Origin: a virus
Direction: 5' to 3' (one strand)
UHGV virus genome: UHGV-1353888
DNA length: 64,000 nt
In this document: positions 2,543-63,580 of the stretch, one piece after another
How the letters are laid out: each line of letters starts with the position of its first letter
How positions within the stretch are numbered: position 1 is the stretch's first letter
Notes under the pieces: generated by a model
The model's input: the letters and a program-made list of their open reading frames with translations, nothing else
Database searches by the model: none
Told to the model about the DNA's origin: nothing
Position numbers and translations under genes: made by a program

Positions 2543-3274
2543 ATGCAAGAAGAAATCTGGAAAAAGATTGAAGGATACCCTCACTACAGCGTCTCAAACA
2601 AAGGACGTGTTCGGAATGATACTAGAGATAAGTTACTCCAACTCGTAAGGCATCGTTGTGGTTATATAGTCGCTCGATTGAATAGAGAAGGAGTACAAAA
2701 GACCCATTATATTCATCGACTTGTGGCTATGGCTTATATTCCTAACCCCCTCAATAAATTCGAAGTTAATCACATAAATGAGGATAAGACTGATAACCGA
2801 GTAAGTAATTTAGAATGGGTAACTCGGTCTGAAAATATATTACACGGGACAAGGAATTTACGGGTTTCCCAAGCATTGACAAACCACCCCAATATTAGTA
2901 AACCAATCCTACAGTTCAACCAAAGAGGAGAATTATTAGAAGAGTATCCCAGTAGTAGGGAAGCTTCCCGAACCACCAAAATAAGCTGGAAATATATTTC
3001 ATCTTGTTGCCTCGGTAAGATAAAGACGGCAGGAGGTTACATTTGGAAATACAAAGAAGATATGGAGTTAGGGCCTCCTGAATCCGTAATTCCACCATTA
3101 ACCATTATATCCAAATACAGTAGAGATGGACAACTACTGTGGATATATTCCTCAATATATGAAGCCGCAGAGGATGTGGGAACTACAGCAACACATATCT
3201 CCGGATGTATACTCGGAAAAAGGAAATCTGCCGGAGGATACCTCTGGAAAAGAGATACAGTACAATCACTATGA
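2543..3274 (+). CDS. HNH homing endonuclease (NUMOD4-like N-terminus, HNH core, C-terminal NUMOD-like repeats)
   Basis: WKKIEGYPHYSVSNKGRVRN, then VNHINEDKTDNRVSNLEWVTRSENI. Duplicated GGYIWKYKE / GGYLWKR modules. Immediately 3' of the polymerase. Confidence 0.8.
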   Translation: MQEEIWKKIEGYPHYSVSNKGRVRNDTRDKLLQLVRHRCGYIVARLNREGVQKTHYIHRLVAMAYIPNPLNKFEVNHINEDKTDNRVSNLEWVTRSENILHGTRNLRVSQALTNHPNISKPILQFNQRGELLEEYPSSREASRTTKISWKYISSCCLGKIKTAGGYIWKYKEDMELGPPESVIPPLTIISKYSRDGQLLWIYSSIYEAAEDVGTTATHISGCILGKRKSAGGYLWKRDTVQSL

Positions 3275-35721: not shown

Positions 35722-35763
35722 GACATATTTTCTTCTTGCAATAGTAAATATTCATGGTACAAA

Positions 35764-35801
35764 AAGGGCACAGTCTTTACGGGCTGTGTCCTTTTCTCTT
35801 T
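35764..35801 (+). terminator. rho-independent terminator: 12-bp stem with two G-U pairs, TTTAC loop, TTCTCTTT tail
   Basis: AAGGGCACAGTC TTTAC GGGCTGTGTCCTT. Confidence 0.5.
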
Positions 35802-35837
35802 ACAAGAGAGGGATTAACCAACATACTATACGCATCT

Positions 35838-41800: not shown

Positions 41801-44800
41801 CGATGCTGTGCGTGCCGCCAAGGATATAACCATAGCCCAGCAAGCCCGTAGAGAGCGCATAGCCCAAGCCGAAAAGAACTACCAGACGAAGGTAGGACGA
41901 GGAGGCATGAAGAATGGGGTATGGACTTCTCCTGGAACGGTATGGCTTGAGCGTGATGCGGCATTGACTGCGGAGAAGAACCGGATGGAAACGGTATACG
42001 CCATGAAGAGAAATGAAGCCCGTAAGGAACTTCTCAAATATCCTTTTGGTGCCCGCCTGCTCAATGTGCTGGATGACAACCGAAGAGCTATTGCTACCAT
42101 GGAAGCTAACCTGATGCACCGCCGCGGAGCCATTGGCCTCGGAACAAAGGTGAGGGACTTTACCTACCTTTCCCGAACGTTTGCCGCGGTAGGCAAGGAG
42201 TCCATCAACTTCCGTAAGGCTATGATGGAACTACTGGACAGCAACGGCGAAGTGAAGCCGGAGTTTACCCACCTTGTAGGTATCCTAAACAATGCAATCC
42301 AAAGCTACATGAGAGAAAACATCTCCCGTTACAACCAGGGTATTTCAGAAACCCTCGACAACATGCTTGCTATGAGCAAGGTGGCTGATGAACTTGGTCT
42401 GGACGGTAGTGAATACCTTGGCTTCAAGGGGAAGGACGTATGGAAGAATGTAAGTGAATACCTGACGAAGGACCCGGCCCTGGCTGAGAGTGCTCTGAAC
42501 ACAATCAACAATGGTCACTGGAACGAGATTGCCAAGATGAAGGATGGCTCGGTTGAACTCCGTCTCATTATCAACAAGGCGAGCCAGCTAGATAACCTGC
42601 TCGCCTCTGCTGATGGTGGGGAGAAGAGCCGACTCCGTAGCAAGATGCGTAAGGCGAAGGCAGACCTGATGAACAAGGCGGCGGAAGACTATGTGCTTTC
42701 CAGTATGGGAGTAACCGATACTGACCTCCGCTCCTTCCTCCTCGGTCTAAATTCTCCGGAACAAATCACGGAAGCATTCAAATCAACTCCTTACCTGGAC
42801 TCAAGCGTAATCTCCAACCTGATGGGAACGGACGAAAACCTCCGAACCCGCATCAGCAACACCTTGGATTATGTGAGAAAGTCCACCGCTATTGAAATGC
42901 AGAAGCAGGGGGTAAACCTGACCGCTAACCAGCGGGACATGTCCCTTCTTGCTGATGGTGAAGTAGCGGATGCCCTGATAGCTACCGCTCGGAATGTGTT
43001 CAAGGAGACCCTATCCAAGGAGCGTAACGAAGAAAACATCTTCGCCAATCGTAAGAACCTGATGGATAGTGAACTTCAAATTCTTGGAGTTCGCGGATTC
43101 AGCAATCTCACGGATGCCTTCGGTGTTATTCAAAACACCCTGTCCTCCCAGGGCAGAGCCTATGTCAACCAAGTAATTACGCATGACGTAGCAAGGAGCC
43201 TTGAGAGGCACGGGGTTGTTACCGGGGAGAGGACGAAGGAGAATACTCACCTTCTGGAATTCCAGAACAAGGCCAACCCGCTGAACGGAATGTACGCAGA
43301 AAGGGACATCGCCCTTGTCCTCTACCAAGCCATGCGACCTGACGAAGCAATTATGCGGGGTAAGGAATTTGGGAAGAAGTTACAGAGCCATTGGGGTAAC
43401 AACTGGGGAATGCTGAGAAGCATCGGTGGATTTGTTTCCATGCTGACCCTGGTCCGTACTCCCTCCGCTACCCTCCGTAACATGGCGGGGACCGTGGGGC
43501 AAAGCCTGAACGCAGGTGCTCTCCCGTTTGACAAGGGGGTTATCAAGGGATATGGAGAAGTGTACCAGCTTGCCCAGGACTTCGTTGTTGCGAACATCCT
43601 AAGTTCCGCGGGTTCCGTTGGTGTGAGAGGTGCAGTGAACAGTGAGATTATGGCGAACGCTGAGAAGCGATTCAACCAGTCCATGCAGAGGTATCGTGAC
43701 CTGGGCCTGCTCGACGCGGGCGCGGCGAACTTCATGAAGGAACAGTGGAAGCAGGGGCTTAATGAAATGAGCCAGAAAGAGGGCAGTGAAATCAGCTTGC
43801 CCGACGAGGACGCAATGTTCTCTTCGCTCGTATCGGAACTAGGAGACCGGAGCACTGCAAAGAAAGCGATGGACCTCGCCAAGCGCATTGCGTATGGTAC
43901 GTTCGTTTCGCCTATGAGCGTTGCCGCTTCTGCTTACTCCGTCCCTGACGTTATCGCCAAGATAATCCTCTTCAATGGGGAGAGCCACAAGGTAAGCAAG
44001 GTAGTGAAAGCTGAGCTCGCACAAGCTGAGAAGCTGAGTAGAGCAGGGAAGGAAGACAAGCTGACAAGCTACATGAAGGACGCTTTGGCCGCTAAGAAGG
44101 AGGGGACTCTTACTTCCTACATTGAACGTAGGGCGGCGGACAGGACGAAGAACCTTCTTCCCACGGGTGCAAGAACTCCTGACTGGGTGAATAAGGTAAG
44201 CATCTTTGGGATGCCCTTCTTCTCCTTCATGTACCACACTTGGCAGAGTGTCCCTTACAGCATTGGCTATGGGATGGAAGAACTTCGCGCCGCAAGGTTT
44301 GCAACCAATACGGCAGATAAAGTCTCCCTCTACATGGATGCCACCCAAAAGTTTGGGGGGGCTATCCTGGGCCAGTATGCTATGATGGAACTGATGCGGT
44401 TTGCCCTTCCGATTGTTACTCAAGCAATCATGGGTATGGTCACGGGTGATGACGAAGAAGACAAGATGCAGATGCTCGAAGCAAGTTCGTTTACCCGTTG
44501 GCTTGCACGGAATGCTGGACTCTCCGCGGACTACGACCAGAACGGAGAACTCTTTTTCTGGTTTGACAAGGATAATGAAACCTTCATAGTCCAGGATGGT
44601 CAGTACCTTCTGCCCTATAAGAGCCTTGGTGAAACCCTGGGTGCTATTATCAACCTTGCTGGATTGAATCCTTTCTCTGACAAGAGTGAGGCTAACCAAT
44701 TCGAGGATGACTACACCGCCCAGCTTCTGGATTATGTTCAGAGCACGGCTGGCTCTCCCTCCATGTGGATTCAAATGCTCATTGATATGGGTTCAAAGGA

Positions 44801-45608
44801 ACCCCGTCAAAGCGCAGACCTGAAACAACTGGGTGGGGTATCAGCAATCCCGGAAGCCTTTGGGAATGCCCTGCTCATGAGCTTAGGACTCCGCCCTTCT
44901 GCTGAACTTGCGGGCGGTAGGACGCTCGACTGGATGGAAAGGATAGCCACGACTGTAAAGGATAACCTCCCCCTATGGCCTACTCTGGTTCAGGGGGTGC
45001 AGACCTGGACAGGAATGAACCCGGATAGTGAAAAGGCAGGGTGGTTGTTGAAGAACCTTGGCTTCGGTGTTCGTCGCCCCAAGAATATTAATGATGTCCT
45101 CCGGGACAGTCTTGCTAAAGGTAACAAGGACCTCTCCAATTCGTTGAAGAACCAGCGCATCATGGATACCAACCTTTACACGGCTGACCTTAGCGATGCA
45201 GAGTATGACAAGATTATCGAGGCTGATAAGGCTATGGTAATTGAGCAGAGTATTTCCCTCGCTAATAGGTTCCTGGCGTTGAAGGGGTTCCTCAAGGGGA
45301 TGGGAGTCAAGGACGTTGACACGGTTCTTGAAGCATCTGCTCAGGAAGCGGGCATATCGTTGAAGGCTATGGATGACCTTATCTCTGGCCGGGCCAAAGA
45401 CTTCATCTCTAACCAGAGGTTTGACAAGATTGAAGAGACGAGAGACCGCTTGCTTAACAGGCCCGGTATCACTCCGGAAGCTAAGAAAGCCATCCTCCGC
45501 CAGTTCCAACAAGCTGAGAAGGTGTATGACATCGACGCAGTAGATATTACTTCCAGCTTGATTGAGCCGGATAATGTGGAGCAGGAGGTGAAGAGCCAGA
45601 AGAGATAG
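35838..45608 (+). CDS. giant virion-type protein (3,256 aa). Possible T7-RNAP/Pol-A-like palm motifs in the C-terminal third, a possible N4-like virion RNA polymerase
   Basis: Preferred start is the ATG at 35838, after the terminator; the track start 35754 lies inside it. Motifs at 43.1-44.5 kb: SSQGRAYV, ALPFDKG, RSTAKKAMDLAKRIAYG. HELTH at 40381. Confidence 0.7.
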   Translation: MPNDTNQEPLTYRSFGPKNPQTEYYKQLRREQSQTRWQEGRQERAQEAQQTPLSEEAKFLDTLNKIFKQEEEASYTQEQRAYTQEQRAISAEDRGIRKKEKEDSKKEKQASKRDKQIRDWLSGINTRTPGKSLGFSTEAEYEDYLTKTKPETLVDITKFKANDPEEIRRARSAVEEMGASLVLSGEHPQVAEGSFRSLEPQDKANRLLSKSKYGLTKTEDGSYVVDERFLARVNDPSTAGMRNENIARAIVNNLKSIISKEDERGRSDYLIPDVEEVTNLVRNARAKNRETYQEYEKIRERFAVPKGEEEQKAVAPEKVGEQNGGDSSRTQPTLVQHVLSEVDRFFTVNPEAMEYLNTLGAKTDEEIPGAIEDQKFREQARRGIELKDQLARAISEANPAIDLRTVRNELDDDALLYREAVSQFYGGEIPEEVSSAILNRTTQLAQQRQALVASDYAKAEKDAIAEHLKSLGLDEGVALSMGISGLTNRHIAESDTGMGTMRSAVNEALQQYQSGAGQLAASMSFGEQKGYRDPLSHMQWVNIGDGKMAYAFVDPGTNERVGNGFIVDFGNVDQQAKALGVSREAYLDNLALPFKMGNLNATDEANSLFAWDKLNGKLVENATAESTGGLAYYDNDLIERSVLRAVEAGAPAEVVDKYRENLLQLQKQNAKDMIDQMLGQYEAVANLVASDSKTLDTLFPGIRLAMKAMHNDFRDYYAENKGKMTNEEIISSFLADEQNRQGFLAITMAGAKTVARYKAAAIGASQFVSEGSRIIGLGTGDPAKYNNMWENLHKEEQAINTITTRAGGVAEWGAEIGNVLLQTAETTTTGGIGGVSGRVGTMTGRLAKLFGEAVALKAATPGTMRLGQVITKLGGGVERLVSGPGKSALTQASSRGSSLAISAKLFTDAAAPTFGEVSNATYNEEMARLAKDPETSGLSEAIRMEMAQNVATTKGSIAGIGYGIFSTILNNRAGFNRMIRKATGATTKAPGVFGKLESSLEGPGIFNLKGLPGKEKAISIAKQVGRLSASAVEGGTEELADEALQWAWQTLTQHGEIREEDIASERDVWNAASKIFILGAIGGEVGHGIQAMTALPPEASNRRDQAIQAQTLYGEAMRNALDSDVEGANTTLIEALKEGLDKSSALADAAITSKEAAMSVARNGNIQADENVINEWSSMISQLPDGTSVQLNNFSAEYSRLNRIGDEAGAASLHQAFVEDIAASDTLTDTQRQIAGELILQLTQGTPTAEFVEDVSTQVVLPEGIEELAAVEVEEAPAPVTEELKPEGDLVEQEVEEEVVQIGERDYGYNAPNPVPFVQMLSDWYTSETPITPEIRGEMNALLTDLELEDPDIYDFITDGKEDVDRATVRRLLTVANMTGPDGPLAVDMKGNTEIQKGNALLTDKTVWSKYDKDVEIQDSNWAADVFNMVGEGMQPIQNVLDDVLNTVQDERTRNNIKDIVEFLEERGVPVSVATIQGDSNIAGLTMMDPSSPEQHIALNFSAKNVKSSPADVLLHELTHVLDNHLRETDPLYAERVASIEEIVRSNWANIQKEAERVARTAVTEEEQAEIDQFIAEMEQALFNKQTEFEGGREFLPNVITNPIMGEVIAQGNLPFDQALDQWASPNNLARISQIGRGKVSRIVHNLINAVSSILKGAQVVEGKVNPNAAVIRVEEGTLADPTRMKIVSPKLAEYKPGVEDENVFITDRGVDAALFSSSENFVGAGKRLFRTANVKGGFTADKRTGKKVKEFAGNFQTYVNELVARNERTKRYVTQQTKGMEDSERATVINSIVNYTGDLGNTLDPKVTRRIFAETNNKVEQARVAREAEVDAANNEYAKFIADRRKAIIQAEARVNALAGTQALQNVGVAITQAVQVAKEVPQVDEKNPMAVAAARFRKAQEELNPVMKEIYSTLDEDAKAEMNEAYDKTMKAIAEDLAQDFDNPAEIVPGLLSIGGLQNVPSVDDLSAMFTSVIKANRLGWLKKDADAVRAAKDITIAQQARRERIAQAEKNYQTKVGRGGMKNGVWTSPGTVWLERDAALTAEKNRMETVYAMKRNEARKELLKYPFGARLLNVLDDNRRAIATMEANLMHRRGAIGLGTKVRDFTYLSRTFAAVGKESINFRKAMMELLDSNGEVKPEFTHLVGILNNAIQSYMRENISRYNQGISETLDNMLAMSKVADELGLDGSEYLGFKGKDVWKNVSEYLTKDPALAESALNTINNGHWNEIAKMKDGSVELRLIINKASQLDNLLASADGGEKSRLRSKMRKAKADLMNKAAEDYVLSSMGVTDTDLRSFLLGLNSPEQITEAFKSTPYLDSSVISNLMGTDENLRTRISNTLDYVRKSTAIEMQKQGVNLTANQRDMSLLADGEVADALIATARNVFKETLSKERNEENIFANRKNLMDSELQILGVRGFSNLTDAFGVIQNTLSSQGRAYVNQVITHDVARSLERHGVVTGERTKENTHLLEFQNKANPLNGMYAERDIALVLYQAMRPDEAIMRGKEFGKKLQSHWGNNWGMLRSIGGFVSMLTLVRTPSATLRNMAGTVGQSLNAGALPFDKGVIKGYGEVYQLAQDFVVANILSSAGSVGVRGAVNSEIMANAEKRFNQSMQRYRDLGLLDAGAANFMKEQWKQGLNEMSQKEGSEISLPDEDAMFSSLVSELGDRSTAKKAMDLAKRIAYGTFVSPMSVAASAYSVPDVIAKIILFNGESHKVSKVVKAELAQAEKLSRAGKEDKLTSYMKDALAAKKEGTLTSYIERRAADRTKNLLPTGARTPDWVNKVSIFGMPFFSFMYHTWQSVPYSIGYGMEELRAARFATNTADKVSLYMDATQKFGGAILGQYAMMELMRFALPIVTQAIMGMVTGDDEEDKMQMLEASSFTRWLARNAGLSADYDQNGELFFWFDKDNETFIVQDGQYLLPYKSLGETLGAIINLAGLNPFSDKSEANQFEDDYTAQLLDYVQSTAGSPSMWIQMLIDMGSKEPRQSADLKQLGGVSAIPEAFGNALLMSLGLRPSAELAGGRTLDWMERIATTVKDNLPLWPTLVQGVQTWTGMNPDSEKAGWLLKNLGFGVRRPKNINDVLRDSLAKGNKDLSNSLKNQRIMDTNLYTADLSDAEYDKIIEADKAMVIEQSISLANRFLALKGFLKGMGVKDVDTVLEASAQEAGISLKAMDDLISGRAKDFISNQRFDKIEETRDRLLNRPGITPEAKKAILRQFQQAEKVYDIDAVDITSSLIEPDNVEQEVKSQKR

Positions 45609-47583: not shown

Positions 47584-47666
47584 ACTATAGCAGGGGAGAT
47601 TAAAATGTAAGGGGTCTCTTGTGTCATACAAAATAAAACCCCAGGAACGCGCCAACGTTCCTGGGG
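47584..47666 (-). promoter_or_regulatory. terminator hairpin (47639-47666, 11-bp stem), T tract, then promoter: box 47618-47629, -35 TTACAT (47605-47610), -10 TATAGT (47584-47589)
   Basis: Minus-strand reading: CCCCAGGAACG...CGTTCCTGGGG TTTTATTTT GTATGACACAAG AGACCCC TTACAT n15 TATAGT. Confidence 0.5.
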
Positions 47667-47823
47667 TAGGTGTATTCATGTATTAGCCGCAAAAATTTTA
47701 GTGTAACAATTCGTCAACTAGTTCGTAGCAATAGGGGGTATAAAGATGGTTGAACTCAGGTGAGGTGTTGAGTAAGTGCAGAGGGAAAGGGTTGGGTGGA
47801 GCCGATGGATTCAAGAAACTGTT

Positions 47824-48860: not shown

Positions 48861-49022
48861 TTAGTCGTGAATTCCGAGGGCTTCTCCGATTAGGCAGGAG
48901 CAGGTCCCCATGAATAAAAGGAGACAGAAGGCCGTCTGATTATAGGGGAGGTCTCCCGAACGGGCATCCATTAATGTTAGGGATACGCCCGTTAAGAGAA
49001 GGATATGCAGGGTTTTAGCCAT
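48861..49022 (-). CDS. small membrane protein (53 aa from the ATG at 49022)
   Basis: Hydrophobic LHILLLTGVSLTL...CLLLFMGTCSCLIG. The track's longer ORF overlaps the upstream gene. Confidence 0.35.
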   Translation of the reverse strand: MAKTLHILLLTGVSLTLMDARSGDLPYNQTAFCLLLFMGTCSCLIGEALGIHD

Positions 49023-49323
49023 TAACGTAGTTGTCAATATCTTCCTGGATAGCCCAGGCTTCCTCATAATAACGGATTTGAATATTGCAAAGCTTCTTGA
49101 ACGCGAAGAACGTTAAGACCAAATAGAGCGCATAGGCCGAGACGAACGTTACGTAAGAGATGAAGTTCTTAGGGGTCATAACGAGTATAAGAAACACTAC
49201 GATGAAGATGGTAACATCCAGGAGAGCCAGCATGGACATCCAGTCTCCAATTTTACGTGCTCTCATTTCGTGTTGTTCCTTGAGCTTTACTTTGTTGTCA
49301 ATGATTGATTGGTTGGTTGTCAT
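49015..49323 (-). CDS. two-TM membrane protein (102 aa)
   Basis: WMSMLALLDVTIFIVVFLILV and VTFVSAYALYLVLTFFAF. Confidence 0.5.
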   Translation of the reverse strand: MTTNQSIIDNKVKLKEQHEMRARKIGDWMSMLALLDVTIFIVVFLILVMTPKNFISYVTFVSAYALYLVLTFFAFKKLCNIQIRYYEEAWAIQEDIDNYVNG

Positions 49324-49659: not shown

Positions 49660-50019
49660 CTAATCATCATTCAATTCTTTTGTTATGATGTCAATGCTTG
49701 TTTTGCAGTCAGACAATAATACTTTCTTTTCATCAGCCATTTCCTTGGGAACCTGCGTACCCCGGACCTTGGCTTCGAGACTAGTAACCCTGTCGAGTAT
49801 GGAACGAAGGGATTTGATTGCCGCAGGAGTGTCCAGGTTGGCCTTCCACATTTGCTCAGTCTCTGCTATCTTAATGACATAGATGAACAGGTCAGACCGG
49901 AGGGTGTAGAAATACCGGGCTTGGTTGGCTTGGGATATTACTTCTTCAAGATGGTCCGCATGAAGGGGGCCAGAAAGAAGAATGGCTATAGCTGATATTA
50001 GTGGGGTTGGTTTCTTCAT
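49660..50019 (-). CDS. secreted/periplasmic protein (119 aa) with N-terminal signal peptide
   Basis: MKKPTPLISAIAILLSGPLHA. ATGA overlap with the upstream gene. Confidence 0.5.
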   Translation of the reverse strand: MKKPTPLISAIAILLSGPLHADHLEEVISQANQARYFYTLRSDLFIYVIKIAETEQMWKANLDTPAAIKSLRSILDRVTSLEAKVRGTQVPKEMADEKKVLLSDCKTSIDIITKELNDD

Positions 50020-50468
50020 TTTCGGTGTGCTTGTAAAATGGCTAGTTCGTGGGATTCAAAGTATGAGGTATTTACGTGGGAACATATTTCTCCATCAGTG
50101 ATTTCAGTCCATGCCAACTCATAACCGCGGGCCTTGTCGAGAGCTTCTTCCATTGCTTCTTTGTCTTCCCCAAACTCACTGGGTTTATCTATGTATTCCT
50201 TTGAGTTTCGTATTATCTCAATGGCAGTCCATAAGGAATCAGTGATGGTAAAGTAACGAAGTTCCTGGTCGAAATCCATCTTTCCAAATCCGCTATAGAG
50301 AGCAACTACGTAGTTTCCTGGAAGTCCCGCGGCTCTGGTCAACAGGAAAGTAATCTTCGGTTCGCCTGGAATGGGGGCCTCTTCTACTTCCTGCTCCAGG
50401 CTGGGCTTAAACTGAATGTCTAGTTCAATCATCTTTGAGCAGTGGGGACACGGTATTTGATTTGTCAT
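50016..50468 (-). CDS. paralogue-family member with an N-terminal CPHC zinc-ribbon extension
   Basis: KITFLLTR...NYVVALY...FTITDSLWTAIEIIRN aligns to the family core. Confidence 0.5.
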   Translation of the reverse strand: MTNQIPCPHCSKMIELDIQFKPSLEQEVEEAPIPGEPKITFLLTRAAGLPGNYVVALYSGFGKMDFDQELRYFTITDSLWTAIEIIRNSKEYIDKPSEFGEDKEAMEEALDKARGYELAWTEITDGEICSHVNTSYFESHELAILQAHRK

Positions 50469-50827
50469 TGTGCTTCCTCCTTTTGTTTGAGTTCTTCCAG
50501 GAGAACCTCCTCATTGCCCACCTGTATATTTTGAGTGTTCAGGTTGATAATCTTCCTATGCCCATCACCTGTGTAATTTAGTTCAGCCAGATAGATGTCA
50601 TGTTCGAATAATTGCCATGCTCTTTTCCTCTTTTCATAGGTTCCAAAGATGTCACTAGGCCAGTTGCCTACATTCTCTCGGTCTTCAACAAGAGAGATAG
50701 CTTCCTCCAATGTATTCACAACCGTCAGGTATTCTAGTTTAATAATGCGGCCTACCTCTTTGTAGATGACTACACGGAAATAATTACCTGGGGTACGATA
50801 GATTGAAAATGTAAGTTGTGGGTTCAT
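50465..50827 (-). CDS. paralogue-family protein 1 (120 aa)
   Basis: LTFSIYRT..NYFRVVIYKE...VNTLEEAISLVEDR. ATGA coupling on both sides. Confidence 0.6.
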   Translation of the reverse strand: MNPQLTFSIYRTPGNYFRVVIYKEVGRIIKLEYLTVVNTLEEAISLVEDRENVGNWPSDIFGTYEKRKRAWQLFEHDIYLAELNYTGDGHRKIINLNTQNIQVGNEEVLLEELKQKEEAQ

Positions 50828-51183
50828 TTCTTGCTCAGTTCTCTCTTTTTGAATTCCATGAGAAGGTCAAACTCTTTTTCATCCATAAGGTTTACGGCGA
50901 TGTTATAGACTACTCCCCGGCCAGCGTAGATGCAAGCTTCCATGAGAAGTGCCGCGTCATCATTAGGTACATTCTTAAAGAAAATCCATCTGTCTTCATC
51001 ATCATCAAACCCATCGTCTGGTCGTTTCTTGTAGTTATTCCTGTCTTCCGCTACCTGGATAGCTTCCTCCAGTGTATCAACTACTTCAATATGTTTAGTA
51101 AGGAAAACCAGGGTGTCTTCTTTGAAAATACTTACCCTGAACTTGTTCTTTTTGGTTCGGTGAATTGAAAAAGTTAATATCAT
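50824..51183 (-). CDS. paralogue-family protein 2 (119 aa)
   Basis: LTFSIHRT..NKFRVSIFKED...HIEVVDTLEEAIQVAEDR...DGFDDDEDR. Confidence 0.6.
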   Translation of the reverse strand: MILTFSIHRTKKNKFRVSIFKEDTLVFLTKHIEVVDTLEEAIQVAEDRNNYKKRPDDGFDDDEDRWIFFKNVPNDDAALLMEACIYAGRGVVYNIAVNLMDEKEFDLLMEFKKRELSKK

Positions 51184-51536
51184 TTATTCTCTCCTTCCAT
51201 TTCGGCTTGACATTTCATAAGTAGGGAAAGCTCTTTCCGGTTTACATGGCTCTCGTATAGAGCGTATTGTATTTCTTTGTTGTGGTCTACATAGCATTCC
51301 AAGAGAGCACGGTCATACTCAGTGCGTCTCCAGAATTCACGTCTATCTTCATCCGTTTCAAAGCCGTCACTCAGTCGGTTCTTATAATGCTTCCTGTCCT
51401 TGGCCAAGGCGATAGCTTCCTCTAGCGTATCAACCACCTCAATGTGTTTGATGGCGAACGAGAGAGCGTCTTCTTTGAAAACAATGACCTTGAATTTATT
51501 ATCGTTGGTCCTATAGATTGTAAAAGTTAATTTCAT
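51180..51536 (-). CDS. paralogue-family protein 3 (118 aa)
   Basis: LTFTIYRT..NKFKVIVFKED...HIEVVDTLEEAIALAKDR...DGFETDEDR. Confidence 0.6.
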   Translation of the reverse strand: MKLTFTIYRTNDNKFKVIVFKEDALSFAIKHIEVVDTLEEAIALAKDRKHYKNRLSDGFETDEDRREFWRRTEYDRALLECYVDHNKEIQYALYESHVNRKELSLLMKCQAEMEGENK

Positions 51537-51868
51537 TTGTCTAGTAGGGTTTTAAGGAGGGAGTATTCATTAGAGTCAAGAAGGTAGTCACCGTAGATTT
51601 TATATTCTAAATCCCCTTCGTCATTAATCCAGGTTACTATTAGGGGTGGGTCTGTATTTGTCATCCAGAAACTATTTCGAGCAGGGTCCGTTTTGAATTT
51701 ATCATCAGGTTTCTTCTCCAAGCTATCCCATTCTTTCACCAGTTGAACAGCCTGTTTCAAGGTATCAAATTCATCAATGTATAGGGGGTAGGACTGATAC
51801 CTGTCTTCTTCGAAAATAATTACTCGGAAGTTGCCTTCATCAGTTCGTAATATATCGTAGGTTTTCAT
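51533..51868 (-). CDS. paralogue-family protein 4 (111 aa)
   Basis: YDILRT..GNFRVIIFEED...FDTLKQAVQLVKE. Confidence 0.55.
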   Translation of the reverse strand: MKTYDILRTDEGNFRVIIFEEDRYQSYPLYIDEFDTLKQAVQLVKEWDSLEKKPDDKFKTDPARNSFWMTNTDPPLIVTWINDEGDLEYKIYGDYLLDSNEYSLLKTLLDK

Positions 51869-52215
51869 TGGGGTAATTCTTTCTCTATAAATTCAATAAG
51901 CTTGGTAAGTTCGTCAGGGTCTACTCTAGACTGATACAGGTTACATGCAATTTGGTTGTCCGTATTCACATAAAATTCCAGAAGCTCCACATCTCTGAGT
52001 AAACTTCTCCATATGTCTTCCCTTTCATCATCAGATTCATAGCCATCATCCAGCAGGTCCCGATAATCTTCCCTGTGTCTGGCTATCCATAATGCTTCAT
52101 CCAAGGTATAGGTTGTTGCCATGTGCTTGACATAGAAGTTCCTACTATCTTCTTTGAAAATAAAAACCCGGAACCTATTGTTAGGGGTTCTATAAAGGGT
52201 GAATGTAATTTTCAT
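51865..52215 (-). CDS. paralogue-family protein 5 (116 aa)
   Basis: ITFTLYRT..NRFRVFIFKED...YTLDEALWIARHRE...DGYESDDER. Confidence 0.6.
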   Translation of the reverse strand: MKITFTLYRTPNNRFRVFIFKEDSRNFYVKHMATTYTLDEALWIARHREDYRDLLDDGYESDDEREDIWRSLLRDVELLEFYVNTDNQIACNLYQSRVDPDELTKLIEFIEKELPQ

Positions 52216-52550
52216 TTTAAAAAGGCATCTGCAATTTGTTTTCTTTGAGTGAGCTTAACCTCCCGAATAGTGAAGCCAAGTCTTTCCTTAAACGTATATA
52301 CCGTGGAATAGGCCATCTTGTTTTTGCAGGGATAATAAGTAAGAAGCGTTCCCATTCTTGAGACATTATCAAAGCCGTCACTCGGCCACTCCTTGTAAGT
52401 ATCCCTACCCTTAATGAGCGAGATGGCCTCCTCGAACGAATCCATATACTGGACGAGATGGACACAGTTTCGATGGGTAGCCGTCTCTTCGAACAAGAAA
52501 ATACTATAGTACGAATCGTCCATTTCGTACAGTTCAAACGTTATGTGCAT
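52212..52550 (-). CDS. paralogue-family protein 6 (112 aa), most divergent
   Basis: ITFELYEMDDSYYSIFLFEE...MDSFEEAISLIKGR...DGFD. Confidence 0.55.
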   Translation of the reverse strand: MHITFELYEMDDSYYSIFLFEETATHRNCVHLVQYMDSFEEAISLIKGRDTYKEWPSDGFDNVSRMGTLLTYYPCKNKMAYSTVYTFKERLGFTIREVKLTQRKQIADAFLK

Positions 52551-52554
52551 TAGA

Positions 52555-52859
52555 TTAAAGAAGGGGTTTAAGGGATTTATAAATACTGGAATTAACCGCG
52601 GCGGGATAAATATGTTTGACTATTTTGGTAAATCCCATTGCTGGTTTAACGCTAGTCTGAACAAGAAACTTTGTACTTCTCCTGGAGTATAACCTCTGCA
52701 CATTAGCAGGATAGATTACATCGGGGAGGGTAGTGTTTACGTCAAAGGTAGAGTATAGATTCTTAATGTACGTAATGGCCTCTTCGAGCGAATAGGTCTA
52801 TAGCCATCCTTAGCCGTCAAGAGCAAATCGTAGGTTAAGTATTTTTCTTCTTCGTTCAT
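52555..52859 (-). pseudogene. frameshifted, N-terminally truncated remnant of the paralogue family
   Basis: ATG at 52859 gives MNEEEKYLTYDLLLTAKDGY then a stop. The adjacent frame reads SLEEAITYIKN...KFLVQTS through to the TAA at 52555. Confidence 0.4.
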
Positions 52860-52906
52860 ATGTCTTACTATAGTATGTGATTTTTAAATGTCGAGATTAT
52901 TTTTTG

Positions 52907-53704
52907 TCATTCTCTTTCAAGAAACTTAATCTCGTCGTATTTTGATTTGACTTTTTCAAGGAAGGATTTGAGCATAGTTCTTTCTAATTTGGTAGCCGTC
53001 CTTGGGAGCCTAAAGTGATTCAGGGTTTGTCCTGTATGTCCTTTCTTTCCAGAGTTCTCATTAACAAGAGATACCATAACAGGAATACGGGAGGTGTTGC
53101 TTACCCTGAAATAGGTGTGTTGGTCAGGTGTCCCGTTAATATCTACAAAATTTATATCCTCAATCCTTTTCATAACTTCCTCCAATGTTTTGAAGATACT
53201 ACTCTCGATAGCTTGGGAAGATGTGGTCGTTTCCCTGTAGAAAGTGAGAGCATACTTGTCTTCTAGCTGTAGATAATGCACGGAGAAGGTTACATGGATT
53301 CCATTATCCTTACGGTTTTCCCTCTCAATAAAAGCCTTGGTTTCATCATATAGTTCGGTTACTTTCAGCCATTCGTCAAGAGAAGGAGGGCCCTCCTGGT
53401 ATTCACCTATGAATACTTCGAGTTGTCCTATGTCGCTAAGACAAAGCTCAACCAGAACATGAAGATTCTTAAAACGAAGGAATTCTTTGGTGGCTTCTAT
53501 CTCGCTTCCATATGTACAAAAAGTAATGAGGTTCCTGCTCTTGCAAAACTTAATGACATAATCCAGTTTCTTATGGCTTATAATCCCCAAAACTTTGAAG
53601 GAATACATGGCGGAAGAAGTCGTCTCTTCGGTTGCTACCCCCACATACTTTTTTGATTGGGGGTGATAGTACAGGCCAAAGGTAATGTGTTTCAAGTTCT
53701 TCAT
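52907..53704 (-). CDS. protein with two tandem copies of the paralogue-family domain (265 aa from the ATG at 53704)
   Basis: HITFGLYYHPQSKKYVGVATEE and HVTFSVHYLQLEDKYALTFYRE...FKTLEEVMKRIED. The track start 53818 overlaps the upstream gene by 109 nt. Confidence 0.5.
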   Translation of the reverse strand: MKNLKHITFGLYYHPQSKKYVGVATEETTSSAMYSFKVLGIISHKKLDYVIKFCKSRNLITFCTYGSEIEATKEFLRFKNLHVLVELCLSDIGQLEVFIGEYQEGPPSLDEWLKVTELYDETKAFIERENRKDNGIHVTFSVHYLQLEDKYALTFYRETTTSSQAIESSIFKTLEEVMKRIEDINFVDINGTPDQHTYFRVSNTSRIPVMVSLVNENSGKKGHTGQTLNHFRLPRTATKLERTMLKSFLEKVKSKYDEIKFLERE

Positions 53705-53709
53705 TTTAA

Positions 53710-54291
53710 TTATAGGGGCATTCTTGAAACGATGGTGAGTTCCTTGGAAAGAATAACGGAGGCCCATGAGAGGCGCATATACTTTGCAAGTTCCGTCAGG
53801 AGGTTGAGGCTCAAACAAGCGGTATTTCCAAGCCGTCTTTCGGGCTCTACTCCGTTCTTGTCCAGACTGATACTAAGGTGAAGAGCAAGGAAAGCCAGGG
53901 CCAGCTTTGGAAGATTCTCACATTCCTTTAGAAGGCTTGCCACCTGCTTTTTGTCCAACGTTGAATAAGAACTCCTGTTCTCCATGTCAATACCATGGCC
54001 GTGAATCTTGGCAAGGTTTTTATTGTAGCAATGCAAGGCGCGGGTGAATGAAGAGTTGAATACATGGTTCAAGTCCTTCCGGTGTTCACTACAGAACTCA
54101 ATGGGGTTCTCAACCCGGCACAAAGTAATAGCATCCTGAATCAGAAATGCCTTAGAAGTTGCGGGAACCATAAGGCCAAACAATACATTTTCAGGCGTTG
54201 TTTTTTCAGTATAGGCCCGTTCAATAAGAGCCTTGCTGGTTCCTTCTTCGGTAAAGGTGAATTCGTTTTCGGAAATATTATCGTTCATCAT
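53710..54291 (-). CDS. hypothetical protein (193 aa)
   Basis: ATG-ATG start, no motif recognised. Confidence 0.5.
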   Translation of the reverse strand: MMNDNISENEFTFTEEGTSKALIERAYTEKTTPENVLFGLMVPATSKAFLIQDAITLCRVENPIEFCSEHRKDLNHVFNSSFTRALHCYNKNLAKIHGHGIDMENRSSYSTLDKKQVASLLKECENLPKLALAFLALHLSISLDKNGVEPERRLGNTACLSLNLLTELAKYMRLSWASVILSKELTIVSRMPL

Positions 54292-54450
54292 TTTTGTATA
54301 GGTTATTAAGTAGGTTAATGTTGCTTTTAGGATTCTGTAGTTGCAGGATGGATTTTCTAAAAAATAGAATGAGGGCTAGGCTAGCTGGAATCAATACCGC
54401 CAGAATGGACATGAATGCTATTAACAGTAGAACCAAGAAAAGAATCTTCA

Positions 54451-55029
54451 TCATAGAGTTATCTTGCTTGTGTCAAGTTTGTTCTTCAAATAATCCAGTT
54501 CACGGGGGGTTAACTTGTTAAATTGGAACACCTTAATTCTTTGTTCGTCAAGCATAAGAGGCTCTTTATCATTAACAATAAGCCTTCTCTCCTTGTTGAG
54601 GGGTTTCCGGGTTATGGTGTTGATTTGTGAAAGAGTCCGCATAGCCACCCCGAAAGATTGCGCTTGAAAATGCCTGATTATTTTGTAAGTTGTACTATTA
54701 TAAATCTGGACATACAATTTAGAGTCAGGCAAGCGGTGAATGCTGAAACTCTTTTCCGGAGACATAGGCGTAATTTGGTAGTCAATAATTAGGGAATCCC
54801 CTTCACGGACTACAAAGCCGTCAGTCAAATTCTCCAGCATTAAGTGCGCCATGGAGATAATGCAAGGTACTGGATTGGCAAACCACACTTTCATTTTGTA
54901 ATGGCAATTATATTCAGTCTTCATCTGCGTGCAACTAGGACCATATACCCTCACATCCTTACTACTGAAATAACAGAGGGTTAGAAGTTGAGACTGCCAT
55001 GCACGAAGGCAGTTCATTTTATTTGTCAT
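54451..55029 (-). CDS. protein with an N-terminal Cys/His-rich extension and a C-terminal paralogue-family domain
   Basis: KSFSIHRLPDSKLYVQIYNS matches LTFSIHRTKKNKFRVSIFKE. Confidence 0.5.
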   Translation of the reverse strand: MTNKMNCLRAWQSQLLTLCYFSSKDVRVYGPSCTQMKTEYNCHYKMKVWFANPVPCIISMAHLMLENLTDGFVVREGDSLIIDYQITPMSPEKSFSIHRLPDSKLYVQIYNSTTYKIIRHFQAQSFGVAMRTLSQINTITRKPLNKERRLIVNDKEPLMLDEQRIKVFQFNKLTPRELDYLKNKLDTSKITL

Positions 55030-55986: not shown

Positions 55987-56018
55987 TTCTTTTTGTCTTT
56001 CTATTTTTGTTTGTAGTT

Positions 56019-56711: not shown

Positions 56712-56774
56712 TTTCTTTTGTCTTTCTATTTGTTGTGCCGGACGTTTTGGCCTCCGGCTCGCCTTACATGAACA

Positions 56775-56830
56775 GTTATACCATAGGAGCGGGGAAAAAC
56801 AAGACTAATCTTTTTTGTCTTGTGTCATAC
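56775..56830 (-). promoter_or_regulatory. promoter: box 56819-56830, -35 TTGTTT (56797-56802), 16-nt spacer, -10 TATAAC (56775-56780)
   Basis: Minus-strand reading: GTATGACACAAG n16 TTGTTT n16 TATAAC. The leader carries a GCCGGAGGCC...GGCACAAC hairpin. Confidence 0.45.
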
Positions 56831-57644
56831 ACCAATTAAACGCCGCTTTACCTTGTTCAGAAATGGCCCATGGACTAAAAGAACGGTGGACAATACGGGG
56901 GCGGGTAACCACTTCTGCTAGAATACATCCATCTTCTTCCGTGCTTTTATCACAATTGCATGGCATAGGGGTTCCCTTGCATTCTCCTCCCCTGTTTTTA
57001 CGAATATGGCTCTCATAATCCATTGTTAGTAGCAATTCCTTTAACTCTTTCATGGCCTTATAATTATGGAAAGGGTAAGCCATTCGCAAAGAGGTAGAGC
57101 TAAAATTCTCTGACTCTAAATAGATTGTGAGATAAAACTCCTTATTCTCCGTGTTTTCCGTAACGTGTGCAGTATACACGGCTTCCTCACCCTCCAAAAT
57201 GTTCACAACGTCAGCCTCATACTCAATATATTGAGTTTCATGGAGTTCTTCCGTTTTTGCAGGTTGTTTCGGAGCGTCCTTAACGGGCGTAGCGTACACA
57301 TCAACCGTTGCACAGGGGAGGCCAAAACAGGGATATTGATTAAAAGAATCCTCCGTTCCCTCAATTTCGACAATTACCTTCCATTCAGCGCGGAAATCGT
57401 CAAGTTCAGCGCGGTCTTCCTCGCTAAGTTCGCCTTCATCATCTCCATACCCCATTAAATAAGGGAATGCCCATTGAGGAACGCCCTCAACCCTTTCGTA
57501 ACTGTCTGACGTTTCGTCCATTTCGGTCAATACAAGATAGGTACTTCCGCAATGGGGGCATAGTCCGTTTAGAGGCGTAACGCTTCGGTTATCGCATTCC
57601 ATGCAGTCATATTTTTCGTTTTCGTCGATAATAACAGTGCTCAT
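56805..57644 (-). CDS. acidic Cys-rich protein (279 aa)
   Basis: CMECDN...CPHCGS N-terminus and PCNCDKS C-terminus. Conserved leader. Confidence 0.5.
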   Translation of the reverse strand: MSTVIIDENEKYDCMECDNRSVTPLNGLCPHCGSTYLVLTEMDETSDSYERVEGVPQWAFPYLMGYGDDEGELSEEDRAELDDFRAEWKVIVEIEGTEDSFNQYPCFGLPCATVDVYATPVKDAPKQPAKTEELHETQYIEYEADVVNILEGEEAVYTAHVTENTENKEFYLTIYLESENFSSTSLRMAYPFHNYKAMKELKELLLTMDYESHIRKNRGGECKGTPMPCNCDKSTEEDGCILAEVVTRPRIVHRSFSPWAISEQGKAAFNWCMTQDKKD

Positions 57645-57804
57645 TTTTCTATGTTTTCTATTTTAGTTTGTTGGTTGGTTGCGGGGTTGTGTTCCCCTTA
57701 CGCAATCCTTTATATTATATTAGAGGGGAAACGCAAGGGAAATGTTCATGCCTTGTGTCATACTTAACTGTTAAGGAGTTATGAAAATGTTCCACGTGGA
57801 ACAT
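57645..57804 (-). promoter_or_regulatory. repeat element A: promoter (box 57752-57763, -35 TTGCGT, -10 TATAAA 57709-57714), CTTAACTGTTAAG palindrome, 20-nt palindrome AATGTTCCACGTGGAACATT
   Basis: About 85% identical to elements B, C and D. Confidence 0.5.
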
Positions 57805-59172: not shown

Positions 59173-59290
59173 TTTCTTATGTCTTTCTAATTTTTGTTGT
59201 TATTACGGGGTTGTGTCTCCCTTACGCATTTCTTTATACCATTTTTGAGAGAGGATGCAAGGAGAAATGTTGAAACCTTGTGTCATACAG
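59173..59290 (-). promoter_or_regulatory. repeat element C: promoter (box 59277-59288, -35 TTGCAT, 16-nt spacer, extended -10 TGGTATAAA)
   Basis: Conserved blocks CCCTTACGCA and CTTTATA, as in elements A, B and D. Confidence 0.5.
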
Positions 59291-59492
59291 AAGATTGTGG
59301 TTCTTTCGGAACCGTTATCATGCCATACTTTTCAGGGTTGTAAAAGTCCTGCCAAGTGAGATACTCCTTGCTTTTACAATTGGGGCAAGTCTCCTCATTA
59401 AGGGGTACAAGTCCTTTCCATCCGCAACCATTGCACACAACGCAATCACCTAAGCCGAAATAAGTTGTAAATTCCATGGTGATTAAAGACAT
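59283..59492 (-). CDS. small zinc-ribbon protein (69 aa)
   Basis: CVVCNGCGW...CPNCKS. Confidence 0.45.
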   Translation of the reverse strand: MSLITMEFTTYFGLGDCVVCNGCGWKGLVPLNEETCPNCKSKEYLTWQDFYNPEKYGMITVPKEPQSSV

Positions 59493-60097: not shown

Positions 60098-60207
60098 TTT
60101 TCTATTTTATGTTGGAGAAATGCCCCTTACGCAATCCTTTATATAATATTAGAGGGATTATGCAAGGAAAATGTTCATGGCTTGTGTCATACTTAACTGT
60201 TAAGGAG
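60098..60207 (-). promoter_or_regulatory. repeat element B: promoter (box 60181-60192, -35 TTGCAT 60160-60165, -10 TATAAA 60138-60143), CTTAACTGTTAAG palindrome
   Basis: Near-identical to element A across about 100 bp. Confidence 0.5.
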
Positions 60208-60924: not shown

Positions 60925-61318
60925 TTAACCAAGATAAGCTTCTTTTCCAGCGGCCCCCATTTCGGAATAATTAATGTCACGCCAAAGACCATGATTAGGT
61001 TGCACGTAGGTTTCATCTATGACATTGCAAGTTCTGAACAATTTGGAGTCTTCGTAACCAATGTCCATGTTTTCTTTGTTAAACCTAAGCACGATTCCTT
61101 CCCAATTTGTAAAATCTTCCAAATCCTCAATGCAATCCTTAATATCGAAGGGTTGAACATCAAAACAAATACCCCGGATAAGCGCGGAATTTTCATCCTC
61201 CGTGTAAATCGCAATATGCAACCTCCCCCCCGCTATTATCTTCGTAAACCCTGTAGGTATATGCTCCTTTGCACAATTCATCAAGGATAATCACTTCATC
61301 ATTCATTTCTTTGTTCAT
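60925..61318 (-). CDS. gene interrupted at a G7 homopolymer (C7 on the plus strand at 61226-61232): the 61318 frame (42 codons) and the 61284 frame (119 codons) would fuse with a 1-nt slip
   Basis: The conserved leader GGCACAACAACTAATAAAAATATACAATATCATG and promoter E sit in front of 61318. Removing one G gives ...YEDNSGG-RLHIAIYTEDENS... Confidence 0.4.
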
Positions 61319-61372: not shown

Positions 61373-61426
61373 ATTTAGCATAGGGCACATGTTATGCAAG
61401 AAAAAACTTCATCATTTTTGTCATAC
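61373..61426 (-). promoter_or_regulatory. promoter E: variant box GTATGACAAAAA (61415-61426), -35 TTGCAT (61394-61399), 15-nt spacer, -10 TAAATT
   Basis: Same architecture with a degenerate box. Confidence 0.35.
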
Positions 61427-61431
61427 TAGCT

Positions 61432-61704
61432 TTAGTGTTGCACGTCCCTTACTTCGTAATAACGGGGTAAAACAATGACTTGTGAGGTTTCTTTCTTAAA
61501 GTCCATGTAACAGGGGTTCAATCTGTCTAAATTATCTCCTAAATCAATATTCTCAATGAGTTGACAGAGATTATCCCAATTTATAATACCGTGAGTAAAT
61601 CCTAAAAACGTTCTCTTTCCCTCCTTAGAGTCATAAACGGCAAGCAAAAAACTTCCTTCCGTTCTGTTTTCAAAAATTTGATACTCCTTTTCTGCTTTTT
61701 TCAT
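61432..61704 (-). CDS. hypothetical protein (90 aa)
   Basis: Leader AAATTAGAAATACATAAGAAAATG. Confidence 0.5.
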   Translation of the reverse strand: MKKAEKEYQIFENRTEGSFLLAVYDSKEGKRTFLGFTHGIINWDNLCQLIENIDLGDNLDRLNPCYMDFKKETSQVIVLPRYYEVRDVQH

Positions 61705-62556: not shown

Positions 62557-62700
62557 TTTCTTGTATCTTTCTATTTTAGTTCGTTGCTTGGTTGGTTGTA
62601 GGGTTGTGTTCCCCTTACGCATTCTTTATAGCATCTTTGAGCAGGGGAGCAAGCTTTTTCTTTTAGGCTTGTGTCATACAAAATTGTCCCACGTGGAACT
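62557..62700 (-). promoter_or_regulatory. repeat element D: promoter (box 62668-62679, -35 TTGCTC, 16-nt spacer, extended -10 TGCTATAAA 62625-62633) plus CCACGTGG hairpin
   Basis: Conserved blocks shared with elements A, B and C. Confidence 0.5.
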
Positions 62701-62702
62701 TT

Positions 62703-63386
62703 TTATCTCTCCGCATGTTCTTTTACCTTGTCACGTTTAACCAACGGCAAGACGGGAGGAAACACCCCGCTTGCGTAGTCCTCCCGGCTAACTCCCTGCC
62801 AAGCATAACCTTTGTATGTAGGCTGACGGCGTTTTACTACGTTGTTAATTCCAGCCGCTAACCCCTTTACCGCCCGCGCCGCTTCCCAGTAACTAGGATA
62901 TATGGTGATAGGCTCCAGGGTTTCCCGGTTTATCTGCATGACGGGCCGCGCGGATTTGTGCAATCCCTTTTCAATGTTCCCCTTCAATGTCTTTTTCCGT
63001 TTTTTCACGCAGTTACCGTAACGTATGTTTTCCCGGTGAGTACACCATTGCAGATTCTCCGCACGGTTGTTCATGGGGTTTTCATCTAAATGGTTTACAT
63101 CTAACTCGCTTATTTTGTACCCTTTAAGATGCGCGCCTAACGGCACAAACGCACCTGCAACAAGGCGATGAACATAATATTTATAGTGCCATCCTCCCTT
63201 TTCATCCAGCAAGGGAACATATTTATAACCGTTCCGGCTAGTCTGGATGCGTAAAAGCCTGTTGACAAGCTTGCTCCACACCGCGCCCATGTTACTCACA
63301 AGGTACAATTCCCTGCAACCTTTCAGTGGTACAGGTTCCCACAGTTCCCCCGGTCTGGTACATTCAGCCAGTGTCTTCTTCTTCAT
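62703..63386 (-). CDS. HNH homing endonuclease (NUMOD4-like N-terminus)
   Basis: WEPVPLKGCRELYLVSNMGAVWS, then VNHLDENPMNNRAENLQWCTHRENI. The track start is GTG; the ATG at 63386 is preferred. Confidence 0.75.
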   Translation of the reverse strand: MKKKTLAECTRPGELWEPVPLKGCRELYLVSNMGAVWSKLVNRLLRIQTSRNGYKYVPLLDEKGGWHYKYYVHRLVAGAFVPLGAHLKGYKISELDVNHLDENPMNNRAENLQWCTHRENIRYGNCVKKRKKTLKGNIEKGLHKSARPVMQINRETLEPITIYPSYWEAARAVKGLAAGINNVVKRRQPTYKGYAWQGVSREDYASGVFPPVLPLVKRDKVKEHAER

Positions 63387-63391
63387 CTTCT

Positions 63392-63580
63392 TCACTTGTC
63401 AATCCCTTTCCTGCTTTTAATCCCTTTCAATTTCTCTCCTAATTCTTTAAGCCGCGCTTCCTCTTCCGTAAGCTTTCGATTTCCCTGCTTAATCCCTCGG
63501 TTTATGCGCCTAAAATCCTCGGAGAGTTTATCCAGTTTCCGCCTCAACTCTATAAACTGTTCGGTACTGTTAATTGCCAT
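63392..63580 (-). CDS. small coiled-coil protein (62 aa)
   Basis: ATG ORF. Charged heptad-like sequence. Confidence 0.4.
   Translation of the reverse strand: MAINSTEQFIELRRKLDKLSEDFRRINRGIKQGNRKLTEEEARLKELGEKLKGIKSRKGIDK

Follow-up and report, generated by a model that had tools for sequence, protein, structure and literature searches.

Tandem multigene families that gain and lose copies are an already known kind of viral phenomenon, exemplified by the "gene accordions" of the African swine fever virus (ASFV) multigene families MGF110, MGF360 and MGF505 and by the amplification of K3L in poxviruses. In bacteriophages, anti-CRISPR and other anti-defence genes are found in islands, including loci that are recognised by a shared regulatory sequence (PMC11065993), and variable regions of phage genomes are enriched in anti-defence genes (PMC12028318). 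Here we describe a tandem array of small paralogous genes that has features of both kinds of system. It lies on the minus strand of a 64,000-nucleotide stretch (hereafter the window) of the virus genome UHGV-1353888, and its genes encode a domain of ~110 amino acids (aa) whose copies are deleted and fused between closely related phage genomes.

The core of the array is a chain of seven collinear open reading frames (ORFs) at 50016-52550, here called g1 to g7, which encode proteins of 111-150 aa with one domain each (Table 1). A preliminary description of the window, made from the DNA letters, had proposed that six of these genes (g2 to g7, 50465-52550) share ancestry. The genes are found at the positions given there, and this proposal is borne out, as the six proteins align along their full length and are joined by profile hidden Markov model (HMM) and hhalign statistics. 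When an HMM built from the six genes was run on the six-frame translation of the window, it also recovered the domain in g1, where the preliminary description had placed a further copy. The stop/start overlaps on which that description based its idea of coupled translation are present as well: ATGA is the sequence at each of the seven junctions between 52215 and 50016. Other parts of the earlier account had to be revised. Pairwise identity among the core copies, which had been put at 35-45%, was measured as 17-46%, and values of 31-46% are found only among g2, g3, g4 and g6. The proteins had been called strongly acidic, but we found the core copies to be mildly to moderately acidic (isoelectric point, pI, 4.4-5.9; net charge -2 to -13), while two extended variants are basic (pI 7.7-9.4). 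Finally, the CPHC motif ahead of the domain in g1 is indeed there, but it is a single CxxC knuckle and not a full zinc ribbon; the sole Pfam hint for this region is DUF7575, at E=0.077.

We then considered copies outside the core chain. These were tested with a profile iterated over the window and related loci, and with hhalign against 20 control genes of the same block, all 20 of which gave P values of at least 0.022. By these measures the gene at 52907-53704 (265 aa counted from its ATG) does contain two domains, as had been suggested (Table 1). The neighbouring remnant at 52555-52859 had been described as both frameshifted and N-terminally truncated. It is frameshifted, and it carries a 55-bp deletion, but it is not N-truncated, because its N-terminus is still present. 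Intact 119-aa orthologues of this gene are found in the related genomes L001 (5259-5618) and L013 (9433-9792), and the remnant is a proven pseudogene. For another proposed copy, the C-terminal half of the 192-aa protein encoded at 54451-55029, membership in the family is probable only. The hhalign comparison speaks for it, whereas the iterated HMM gives E=0.38 and the AlphaFold2 model has low confidence, with a predicted local distance difference test score (pLDDT) of 48.7; a β-β-β-α arrangement is predicted at residues 93-133 with a pLDDT of 62-67. This model was built with two close orthologues, the only ones returned by an indexed protein search.

The family also proved to be slightly larger than first claimed, as extra members were found at 60925-61318 and 61432-61704, outside the range of 50016-55029 originally given. 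The first of these, a 130-aa member, is frameshifted in the window, as seen by DNA alignment to its intact orthologue in L002 (1543-1935; HMM E=4.5e-8, hhalign P=1.9e-7). The G that causes this shift has been added to a G6/G7 homopolymer and may reflect genuine decay, slippage resembling phase variation, or an error of assembly. Counting the seven core domains, the two of the double-domain protein, the pseudogene and the frameshifted member, the window holds 11 confirmed domains, and two further ones are probable. A separate 69-aa protein (59283-59492, minus strand) has a start resembling the first strand of the domain (EFTTY) and continues directly into a CxxC...CxxC zinc ribbon. Its homologue in a more distant clade (157 aa, L004 3359-3832) has a full family domain followed by the zinc ribbon, which suggests that the window gene arose through an internal deletion.

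We next asked whether the domain belongs to a described family. Among 21 diverse members, no family in Pfam, PHROGs or NCBIfam was matched by more than one (the best E value, 0.0045, fell short of the threshold), a search of the window proteins against these libraries gave nothing consistent for the domain, and the family profile had no match among PDB sequences. An exhaustive HMMER scan of 1.84 billion cluster-representative proteins, with a cut-off of E<=1e-3, returned ten proteins, nine of them from this phage clade and one a repeat artefact (P0021); the matches comprise eight paralogue clusters of this phage lineage, a variant copy, and one protein from the more distant clade (P0020). The family was absent from bacterial genomes in this search. 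The outcome was no different when 5.8 billion proteins were queried through indexed searches, first with a narrow profile and later with a broad one; none of the matches carried a name or a Pfam domain. The distant clade (L004-L011 and L014-L016) has a syntenic array of 6-8 overlapping copies, which are only 10-25% identical to g2, g3, g4 and g6, and has more members upstream of the array, including one with a zinc ribbon joined to its C-terminus. Overlaps between adjacent genes are thus present in both clades, as ATGA in the window and as 4-38 nt in L004. The family therefore had no match in any of the libraries that could have deprived it of its novelty, whether by profile (Pfam, PHROGs, NCBIfam and PDB sequences) or by structure (PDB folds and BFVD, see below), in keeping with the preliminary description, and from these searches it appears to be an orphan that is confined to one phage clade and new to every library searched.

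Comparison of close relatives shows that the array changes its content rapidly. The L001 array consists of the double-domain gene, a 120-aa copy, a 119-aa copy and g7 to g1, for a total of 11 domains. In the window array, the 120-aa gene has been lost outright and the 119-aa gene is the frameshifted one. In L002 and L003, which are otherwise 99-100% identical to the window, the double-domain gene is largely deleted too. L013 has kept its 119-aa gene; here a g5::g2 fusion has formed, and g5, g4 and g3 are deleted. The fusion joins the first 10 codons of g5, through two junction codons (QE), to the whole of g2, and the deletion of the 120-aa gene in the window has its junction in a 12-bp stretch common to the 5' ends of two paralogues. 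As a result, the syntenic array contains 7, 9 or 11 domains among these relatives, or 6 after the g5::g2 fusion, and the DNA around these changes is mostly 95-100% identical between the genomes. Each copy examined is missing from some genome and is therefore dispensable there. The copy-number variation that the preliminary description had looked to is thus observed, and the accessory, fast-turnover behaviour that would be expected of host-directed effectors is seen directly in the deletions and the fusion.

Despite this turnover, the copies that are retained are under purifying selection. Relative to L001, the ratio of nonsynonymous to synonymous substitution rates (dN/dS) is 0.06-0.7 for most copies and ~1.0 for g7, the latter at low divergence. 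The divergence is a mosaic, since g3 is 99% identical in protein sequence to its L001 orthologue and g4 only 63%. In a neighbour-joining tree, g2, g3, g4 and g6 form a group to which g1 lies close and from which every distant-clade copy is separate, a pattern that indicates lineage-specific duplication. Within g7, the same strand also contains an alternative frame of 106 codons (52217-52537), which is open in L001 too (5636-5956); by rough estimate, an open frame of this kind is probably due to chance at this divergence.

To examine the fold of the domain, AlphaFold2 was run on g3 with an 11-row paralogue alignment. The model is confident (pLDDT 90.5; predicted template modelling score, pTM, 0.85) and shows a compact α/β fold with the topology β1-β2-β3-α1-α1'-α2-β4-β5-α3 (β1 2-10, β2 15-22, β3 27-35, α1 38-46, α1' 48-53, α2 62-71, β4 77-86, β5 90-95, α3 102-117). 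Apart from the start methionine, only Thr4 in β1 and Glu22 at the end of β2 are nearly invariant across the 21 diverse members. The LEEA helix, the Arg that follows it and the Pro55-x-Asp57 that heads the acidic loop are strongly but not invariantly conserved, and the 21 members have no conserved constellation of His, Cys, Asp or other catalytic-type residues. Among orthologues (for g5, nine distinct ones), substitutions cluster in the β2-β3 loop and in α2-β4-β5, and β1, β2, α1, the P-x-D(G)F loop and α3 are conserved. Foldseek found no match below E=0.19 in the PDB or below E=0.29 in BFVD. The top BFVD matches are alignments of ~53 columns to tiny uncharacterised phage proteins, with a TM score of 0.64 on the target, and presumably cover the N-terminal β-β-β-α module. 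A YegP/DUF1508 identity for this half of the domain was considered and dropped, as it has no Pfam support.

Table 1. Members of the array and associated features in the window (all on the minus strand)
Feature	Position	Length	Remarks
119-aa protein with signal-peptide-like N-terminus	49660..50019	119 aa	ATGA-coupled to g1, the last array gene; hhalign P=0.089, not a family member
g1	50016..50468	150 aa	35-aa N-terminal extension with one CxxC (CPHC), then family domain; six-core HMM E=2e-7; ATGA at both ends
g2	50465..50827	120 aa	single domain
g3	50824..51183	119 aa	single domain; the copy modelled by AlphaFold2; missing from L013
g4	51180..51536	118 aa	single domain; missing from L013
g5	51533..51868	111 aa	single domain
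g6	51865..52215	116 aa	single domain
g7	52212..52550	112 aa	single domain; most divergent of the core chain, 17-24% identical to other copies
Pseudogene of a divergent 119-aa member	52555..52859		55-bp internal deletion, frameshift; end-points by blastn
Double-domain protein, C-terminal domain	52907..53299		hhalign P=3.7e-6; iterated HMM domain E=5e-18
Double-domain protein, N-terminal domain	53300..53704		hhalign P=5.6e-6, full domain length
Probable divergent domain, C-terminal part of 192-aa protein	54451..54759	~100 aa	hhalign P=1.7e-4, co-linear over the whole domain
130-aa member	60925..61318	130 aa	frameshifted in the window by one extra G in the G-run 61225-61231
Partial member	61432..61704	90 aa	matches N-terminal ~80 profile positions (β-β-β-α module and start of C-terminal part); hhalign P=7e-5, HMM E=0.02
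Terminator-like hairpin	47638..47667		13-bp stem, 8 GC pairs, then T-run TTTATTTT
Nearest promoter-like element upstream of the array	56745..56835		GTATGACACAAG with -35-like and -10-like boxes

The block in which the array lies is marked by a repeated sequence element. Six exact copies of the 12-mer GTATGACACAAG, each on the minus strand, are spread from 47.6 to 62.7 kb (47618-47629, 56819-56830, 57752-57763, 59277-59288, 60181-60192 and 62668-62679), and none lies outside the 46-64 kb block; 0.3 copies would be expected by chance. A degenerate copy is found near 61402-61426. The 12-mer is followed after ~14 nt by a -35-like box, CTTGC(A/G)T, and after another 16-17 nt by an extended -10-like sequence, (TGn)TATAAA. 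A GGGG(N7)CCCC hairpin is also part of the conserved intergenic element of ~90 nt in which the 12-mer is embedded. This element probably marks the promoters of the block, or an operator site, and the block plausibly represents a separately regulated, early gene class. Because the nearest element upstream of the array is at 56.8 kb and the next strong terminator-like hairpin is that at 47638-47667, the array is probably part of a unit of ~9 kb, which this hairpin likely ends. The gene for a 193-aa protein (53710-54291, minus strand) sits just upstream of the array and is the most conserved of the block: the protein is 98-100% identical within the clade and ~50% identical to its counterpart in the distant clade, with a dN/dS of 0.10, and it has no family match. 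At the other end of the array, the gene for the 119-aa protein with the signal-peptide-like N-terminus is followed by one for a small predicted membrane protein (49015-49323, minus strand). The distant clade has a signal-peptide-like protein of 149 aa (L004 10347-10796) at the same post-array position; this likeness is one of position.

The remainder of the window is that of a phage. The plus strand from 0.6 to 46.3 kb codes for a DNA polymerase, a helicase, an exonuclease, a large terminase, an endolysin-like protein and a 3284-aa orphan ORF, and the minus strand from 46.4 kb to the end of the window codes for ~35 small genes, including those for a GNAT acetyltransferase, DUF3310 and DUF6926 proteins and an HNH endonuclease. 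Against 50,697 phage records, megablast of the array region found no DNA match to cultured phages, and tblastn of one array copy found no match either. The terminase matches cultured-phage proteins over only 14% of its length, and the DNA polymerase is ~25% identical to polymerases of Bacteroides and Phocaeicola phages. Judged by such comparisons, the phage stands far from every cultured phage. No integrase turned up among the window proteins scanned, and the labels "virulent" and "early" that the preliminary description gave to the phage and the block are presumptive.

Relatives of the phage, both close and distant, were found only as metagenomic contigs of 62-73 kb. Four of these were retrieved from IMG/VR with the 193-aa protein encoded upstream of the array as anchor query, and they belong to dataset 3300045988, a human faecal co-assembly (bioRxiv 10.1101/2023.07.31.550844). 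The same query had no match in 185,579 species genomes, and hence gave no host clue from binning or prophages. A Shine-Dalgarno-like motif is found upstream of ~15% of start codons (~10 of 67 genes). The scarcity of these motifs, the human-faecal relatives and the polymerase matches to Bacteroides and Phocaeicola phages hint at a Shine-Dalgarno-poor host such as a member of the Bacteroidota, although the Bacteroides-type promoter TTTG..TAnnTTTG has no match in the window. Several genes of the block have in common an A-rich leader, AGAAAGACAnAAGAAAATG (for example at 55987-56010, 56712-56735 and 59173-59196). The 3284-aa ORF (35754-45608, plus strand) lies at the end of the structural module, is conserved with a length of 3232-3284 aa in all relatives, and had no Pfam, PDB-sequence or cultured-phage match (its first 2000 aa were searched against cultured phages); it is possibly a virion-associated giant protein. 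We do not claim it as a virion RNA polymerase, since the DxDxD motif is missing and neither Pfam nor the PDB gave a match. There are also two HNH homing-endonuclease-like genes (2543-3274, plus strand, and 62703-63395, minus strand), mobile elements within the phage genome, one of which sits between the DNA polymerase and helicase genes.

What might such an array do? The explanation that we favour, with a probability of roughly 0.4, is that it encodes a family of diversifying proteins which, without being enzymes, bind or inhibit proteins of the host. Under this explanation, a lineage-specific multigene family evolving by duplication, divergence and loss would provide small cytoplasmic α/β proteins, and the genes would be co-expressed as a translationally overlapping chain in an accessory, probably early, block of a gut phage. 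A conserved scaffold, made of the N-terminal three-stranded sheet with the LEEA helix, the P-x-D(G)F acidic loop and the C-terminal helix, would carry a variable surface consisting of the β2-β3 loop and the α2-β4-β5 subdomain. The proteins would act stoichiometrically on host proteins, whether in counter-defence, toxin neutralisation or takeover, and different paralogues would cover different target variants. An anti-defence function is plausible in this setting; early expression, a protein-binding activity and host targets are inferred. Several observations weigh against this explanation. Its assignment of a role comes from genomic behaviour alone, because no known anti-defence family or fold is matched. 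Positive selection is not demonstrated, since dN/dS never exceeds 1 (the ~1.0 of g7 being at low divergence). Moreover, an array of 6-9 copies occupies the same position in both clades, between which copies are only 10-25% identical; this amounts to long-term retention and could equally reflect a role internal to the phage. Similarly, the acidic loop is conserved rather than variable, and this is as compatible with a shared partner as with diverse targets. A more far-reaching version of the host-directed explanation can only be put forward tentatively: the family would be a new superfamily of phage counter-defence or host-takeover proteins, in which the conserved β-β-β-α scaffold and acidic loop present a diversifying C-terminal subdomain, the coupled operon would be a recombining "library" of inhibitors that tracks variable proteins of the gut host, and phages with differing numbers of domains (6-11) would differ accordingly in the range of host strains they infect.

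A role internal to the phage could be imagined if the paralogues assembled with one another into a hetero-oligomeric complex of the phage, perhaps one with a regulatory function or associated with replication, whose stoichiometry the overlaps would fix. Such a complex would suit the unbroken ATGA coupling across seven genes, the preservation of overlaps in the distant clade, the natural two-domain fusion and an array that is held in place across deep divergence. The composition is variable, however (7, 9 or 11 domains, or 6 after the fusion), with g3 and g4 wanting in L013 and the double-domain gene in L002 and L003, and the duplications are lineage-specific and not 1:1 orthologous between the clades, and we regard this alternative as improbable. 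We give about the same small weight to a special case of the host-directed explanation, in which the proteins would be immunity-like or antitoxin-like and would neutralise host abortive-infection or toxin-antitoxin effectors, or the toxins of competing elements. Tandem, overlapping and diverged small paralogues that vary in copy number, and that have no catalytic-type residues, are consistent with this idea, but the only Pfam Imm hit is one of a single member to Imm32 at E=0.78, no toxin gene was recognised among the block and flanking proteins scanned, and the exhaustive search found the family in no bacterial genome.

Other explanations fare worse. The preliminary description had raised the idea of DNA mimics, which, like Ocr or ArdA, would titrate restriction enzymes or other DNA-binding proteins; the core copies are net acidic and their D/E-rich loop, DGFxxDEDR, is conserved. 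DNA mimics would be expected to have a very high density of negative charge and an elongated, mostly helical or repeated fold, however, and what we found is the modest charge given above, two extended members that are basic, and a compact α/β model, all of which make this idea very unlikely. Equally unlikely is that the array is largely decaying or neutral duplicated DNA without a current function. There are certainly relics in the block (the pseudogene at 52555-52859, the frameshift at 61225-61231 and the truncated gene at 59283-59492), yet the intact copies keep their frames, their overlaps and a dN/dS well below 1 across independent assemblies, their predicted fold is confident, and the family has been retained in two deeply diverged clades. 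We consider it least probable of all, and barely credible, that the proteins are enzymes, such as divergent nucleases of the RNase H or RuvC type. The domain does partially match the RNase H-like fold (RuvC, terminase nuclease, the ATPase subdomain of actin and Hsp70), which has a five-stranded β-β-β-α-β-α-β core, but the connectivity of β4-β5 differs and Foldseek returned nothing significant. Such nucleases would also be expected to have catalytic acidic residues (D in β1, D/E in β4 and D/E after β5); here β1 has an invariant Thr and no acidic residue, and no DEDD-like set is conserved across the 21 members.

If the proteins are indeed host-directed inhibitors, the array would amount to a small, naturally made set of related binders that differ in specificity. 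Such a set would help in the search for new defence systems or targets of gut bacteria, and in the study of how phages use duplication, fusion and loss to diversify their counter-measures. The deletions and the fusion between near-identical metagenomic genomes are natural "knock-outs" that can be correlated with host strains. Whatever its function, the domain is one that is predicted to fold confidently and has no structural or sequence relatives, and it comes from an uncharacterised clade of gut phages that also has the 3284-aa orphan protein and a distinctive promoter-like element.

How, then, does this locus compare with known systems? At the level of the single domain, the nearest likenesses are small uncharacterised phage proteins in BFVD, ~55-70 aa long, among them ORF13 of Vibrio phage ICP1 and A0A3S8G659, of which ~53 residues superpose at a TM score of 0.64; unlike the array domain, these have no C-terminal subdomain and are not arrayed, and their E values are at least 0.29. 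At the level of gene organisation, the tandem orphan immunity arrays of polymorphic toxin systems have an analogous architecture of tandem, diverged small paralogues. The resemblance to phage anti-defence loci lies in small orphan proteins, a variable accessory region, a repeated class-specific promoter-like element and fast turnover. We found small accessory genes of a variable region under such an element, as in an anti-defence operon, with a timing that would be early; neither sequence nor fold links any member to a known anti-defence protein, and no Aca-like helix-turn-helix regulator was recognised beside the array, although no systematic search for one was made. Anti-defence loci also differ in that they usually hold unrelated small genes, whereas here there are 7-11 paralogues of one domain. 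In this last respect the locus resembles the ASFV multigene families and poxvirus K3L. Adjacent copies are homologous, and the family shows both copy-number variation and lineage-specific duplication (6-11 domains). As in those systems, locally amplified and diverging paralogues occupy an accessory region of the genome, their number shifts between close relatives through deletion or recombination of paralogues, and single copies are dispensable while the family persists. What sets the present array apart from them is that it belongs to a bacteriophage of ~70 kb and is built from single domains of ~110 aa, unrelated to those families and chained together by start/stop overlaps.

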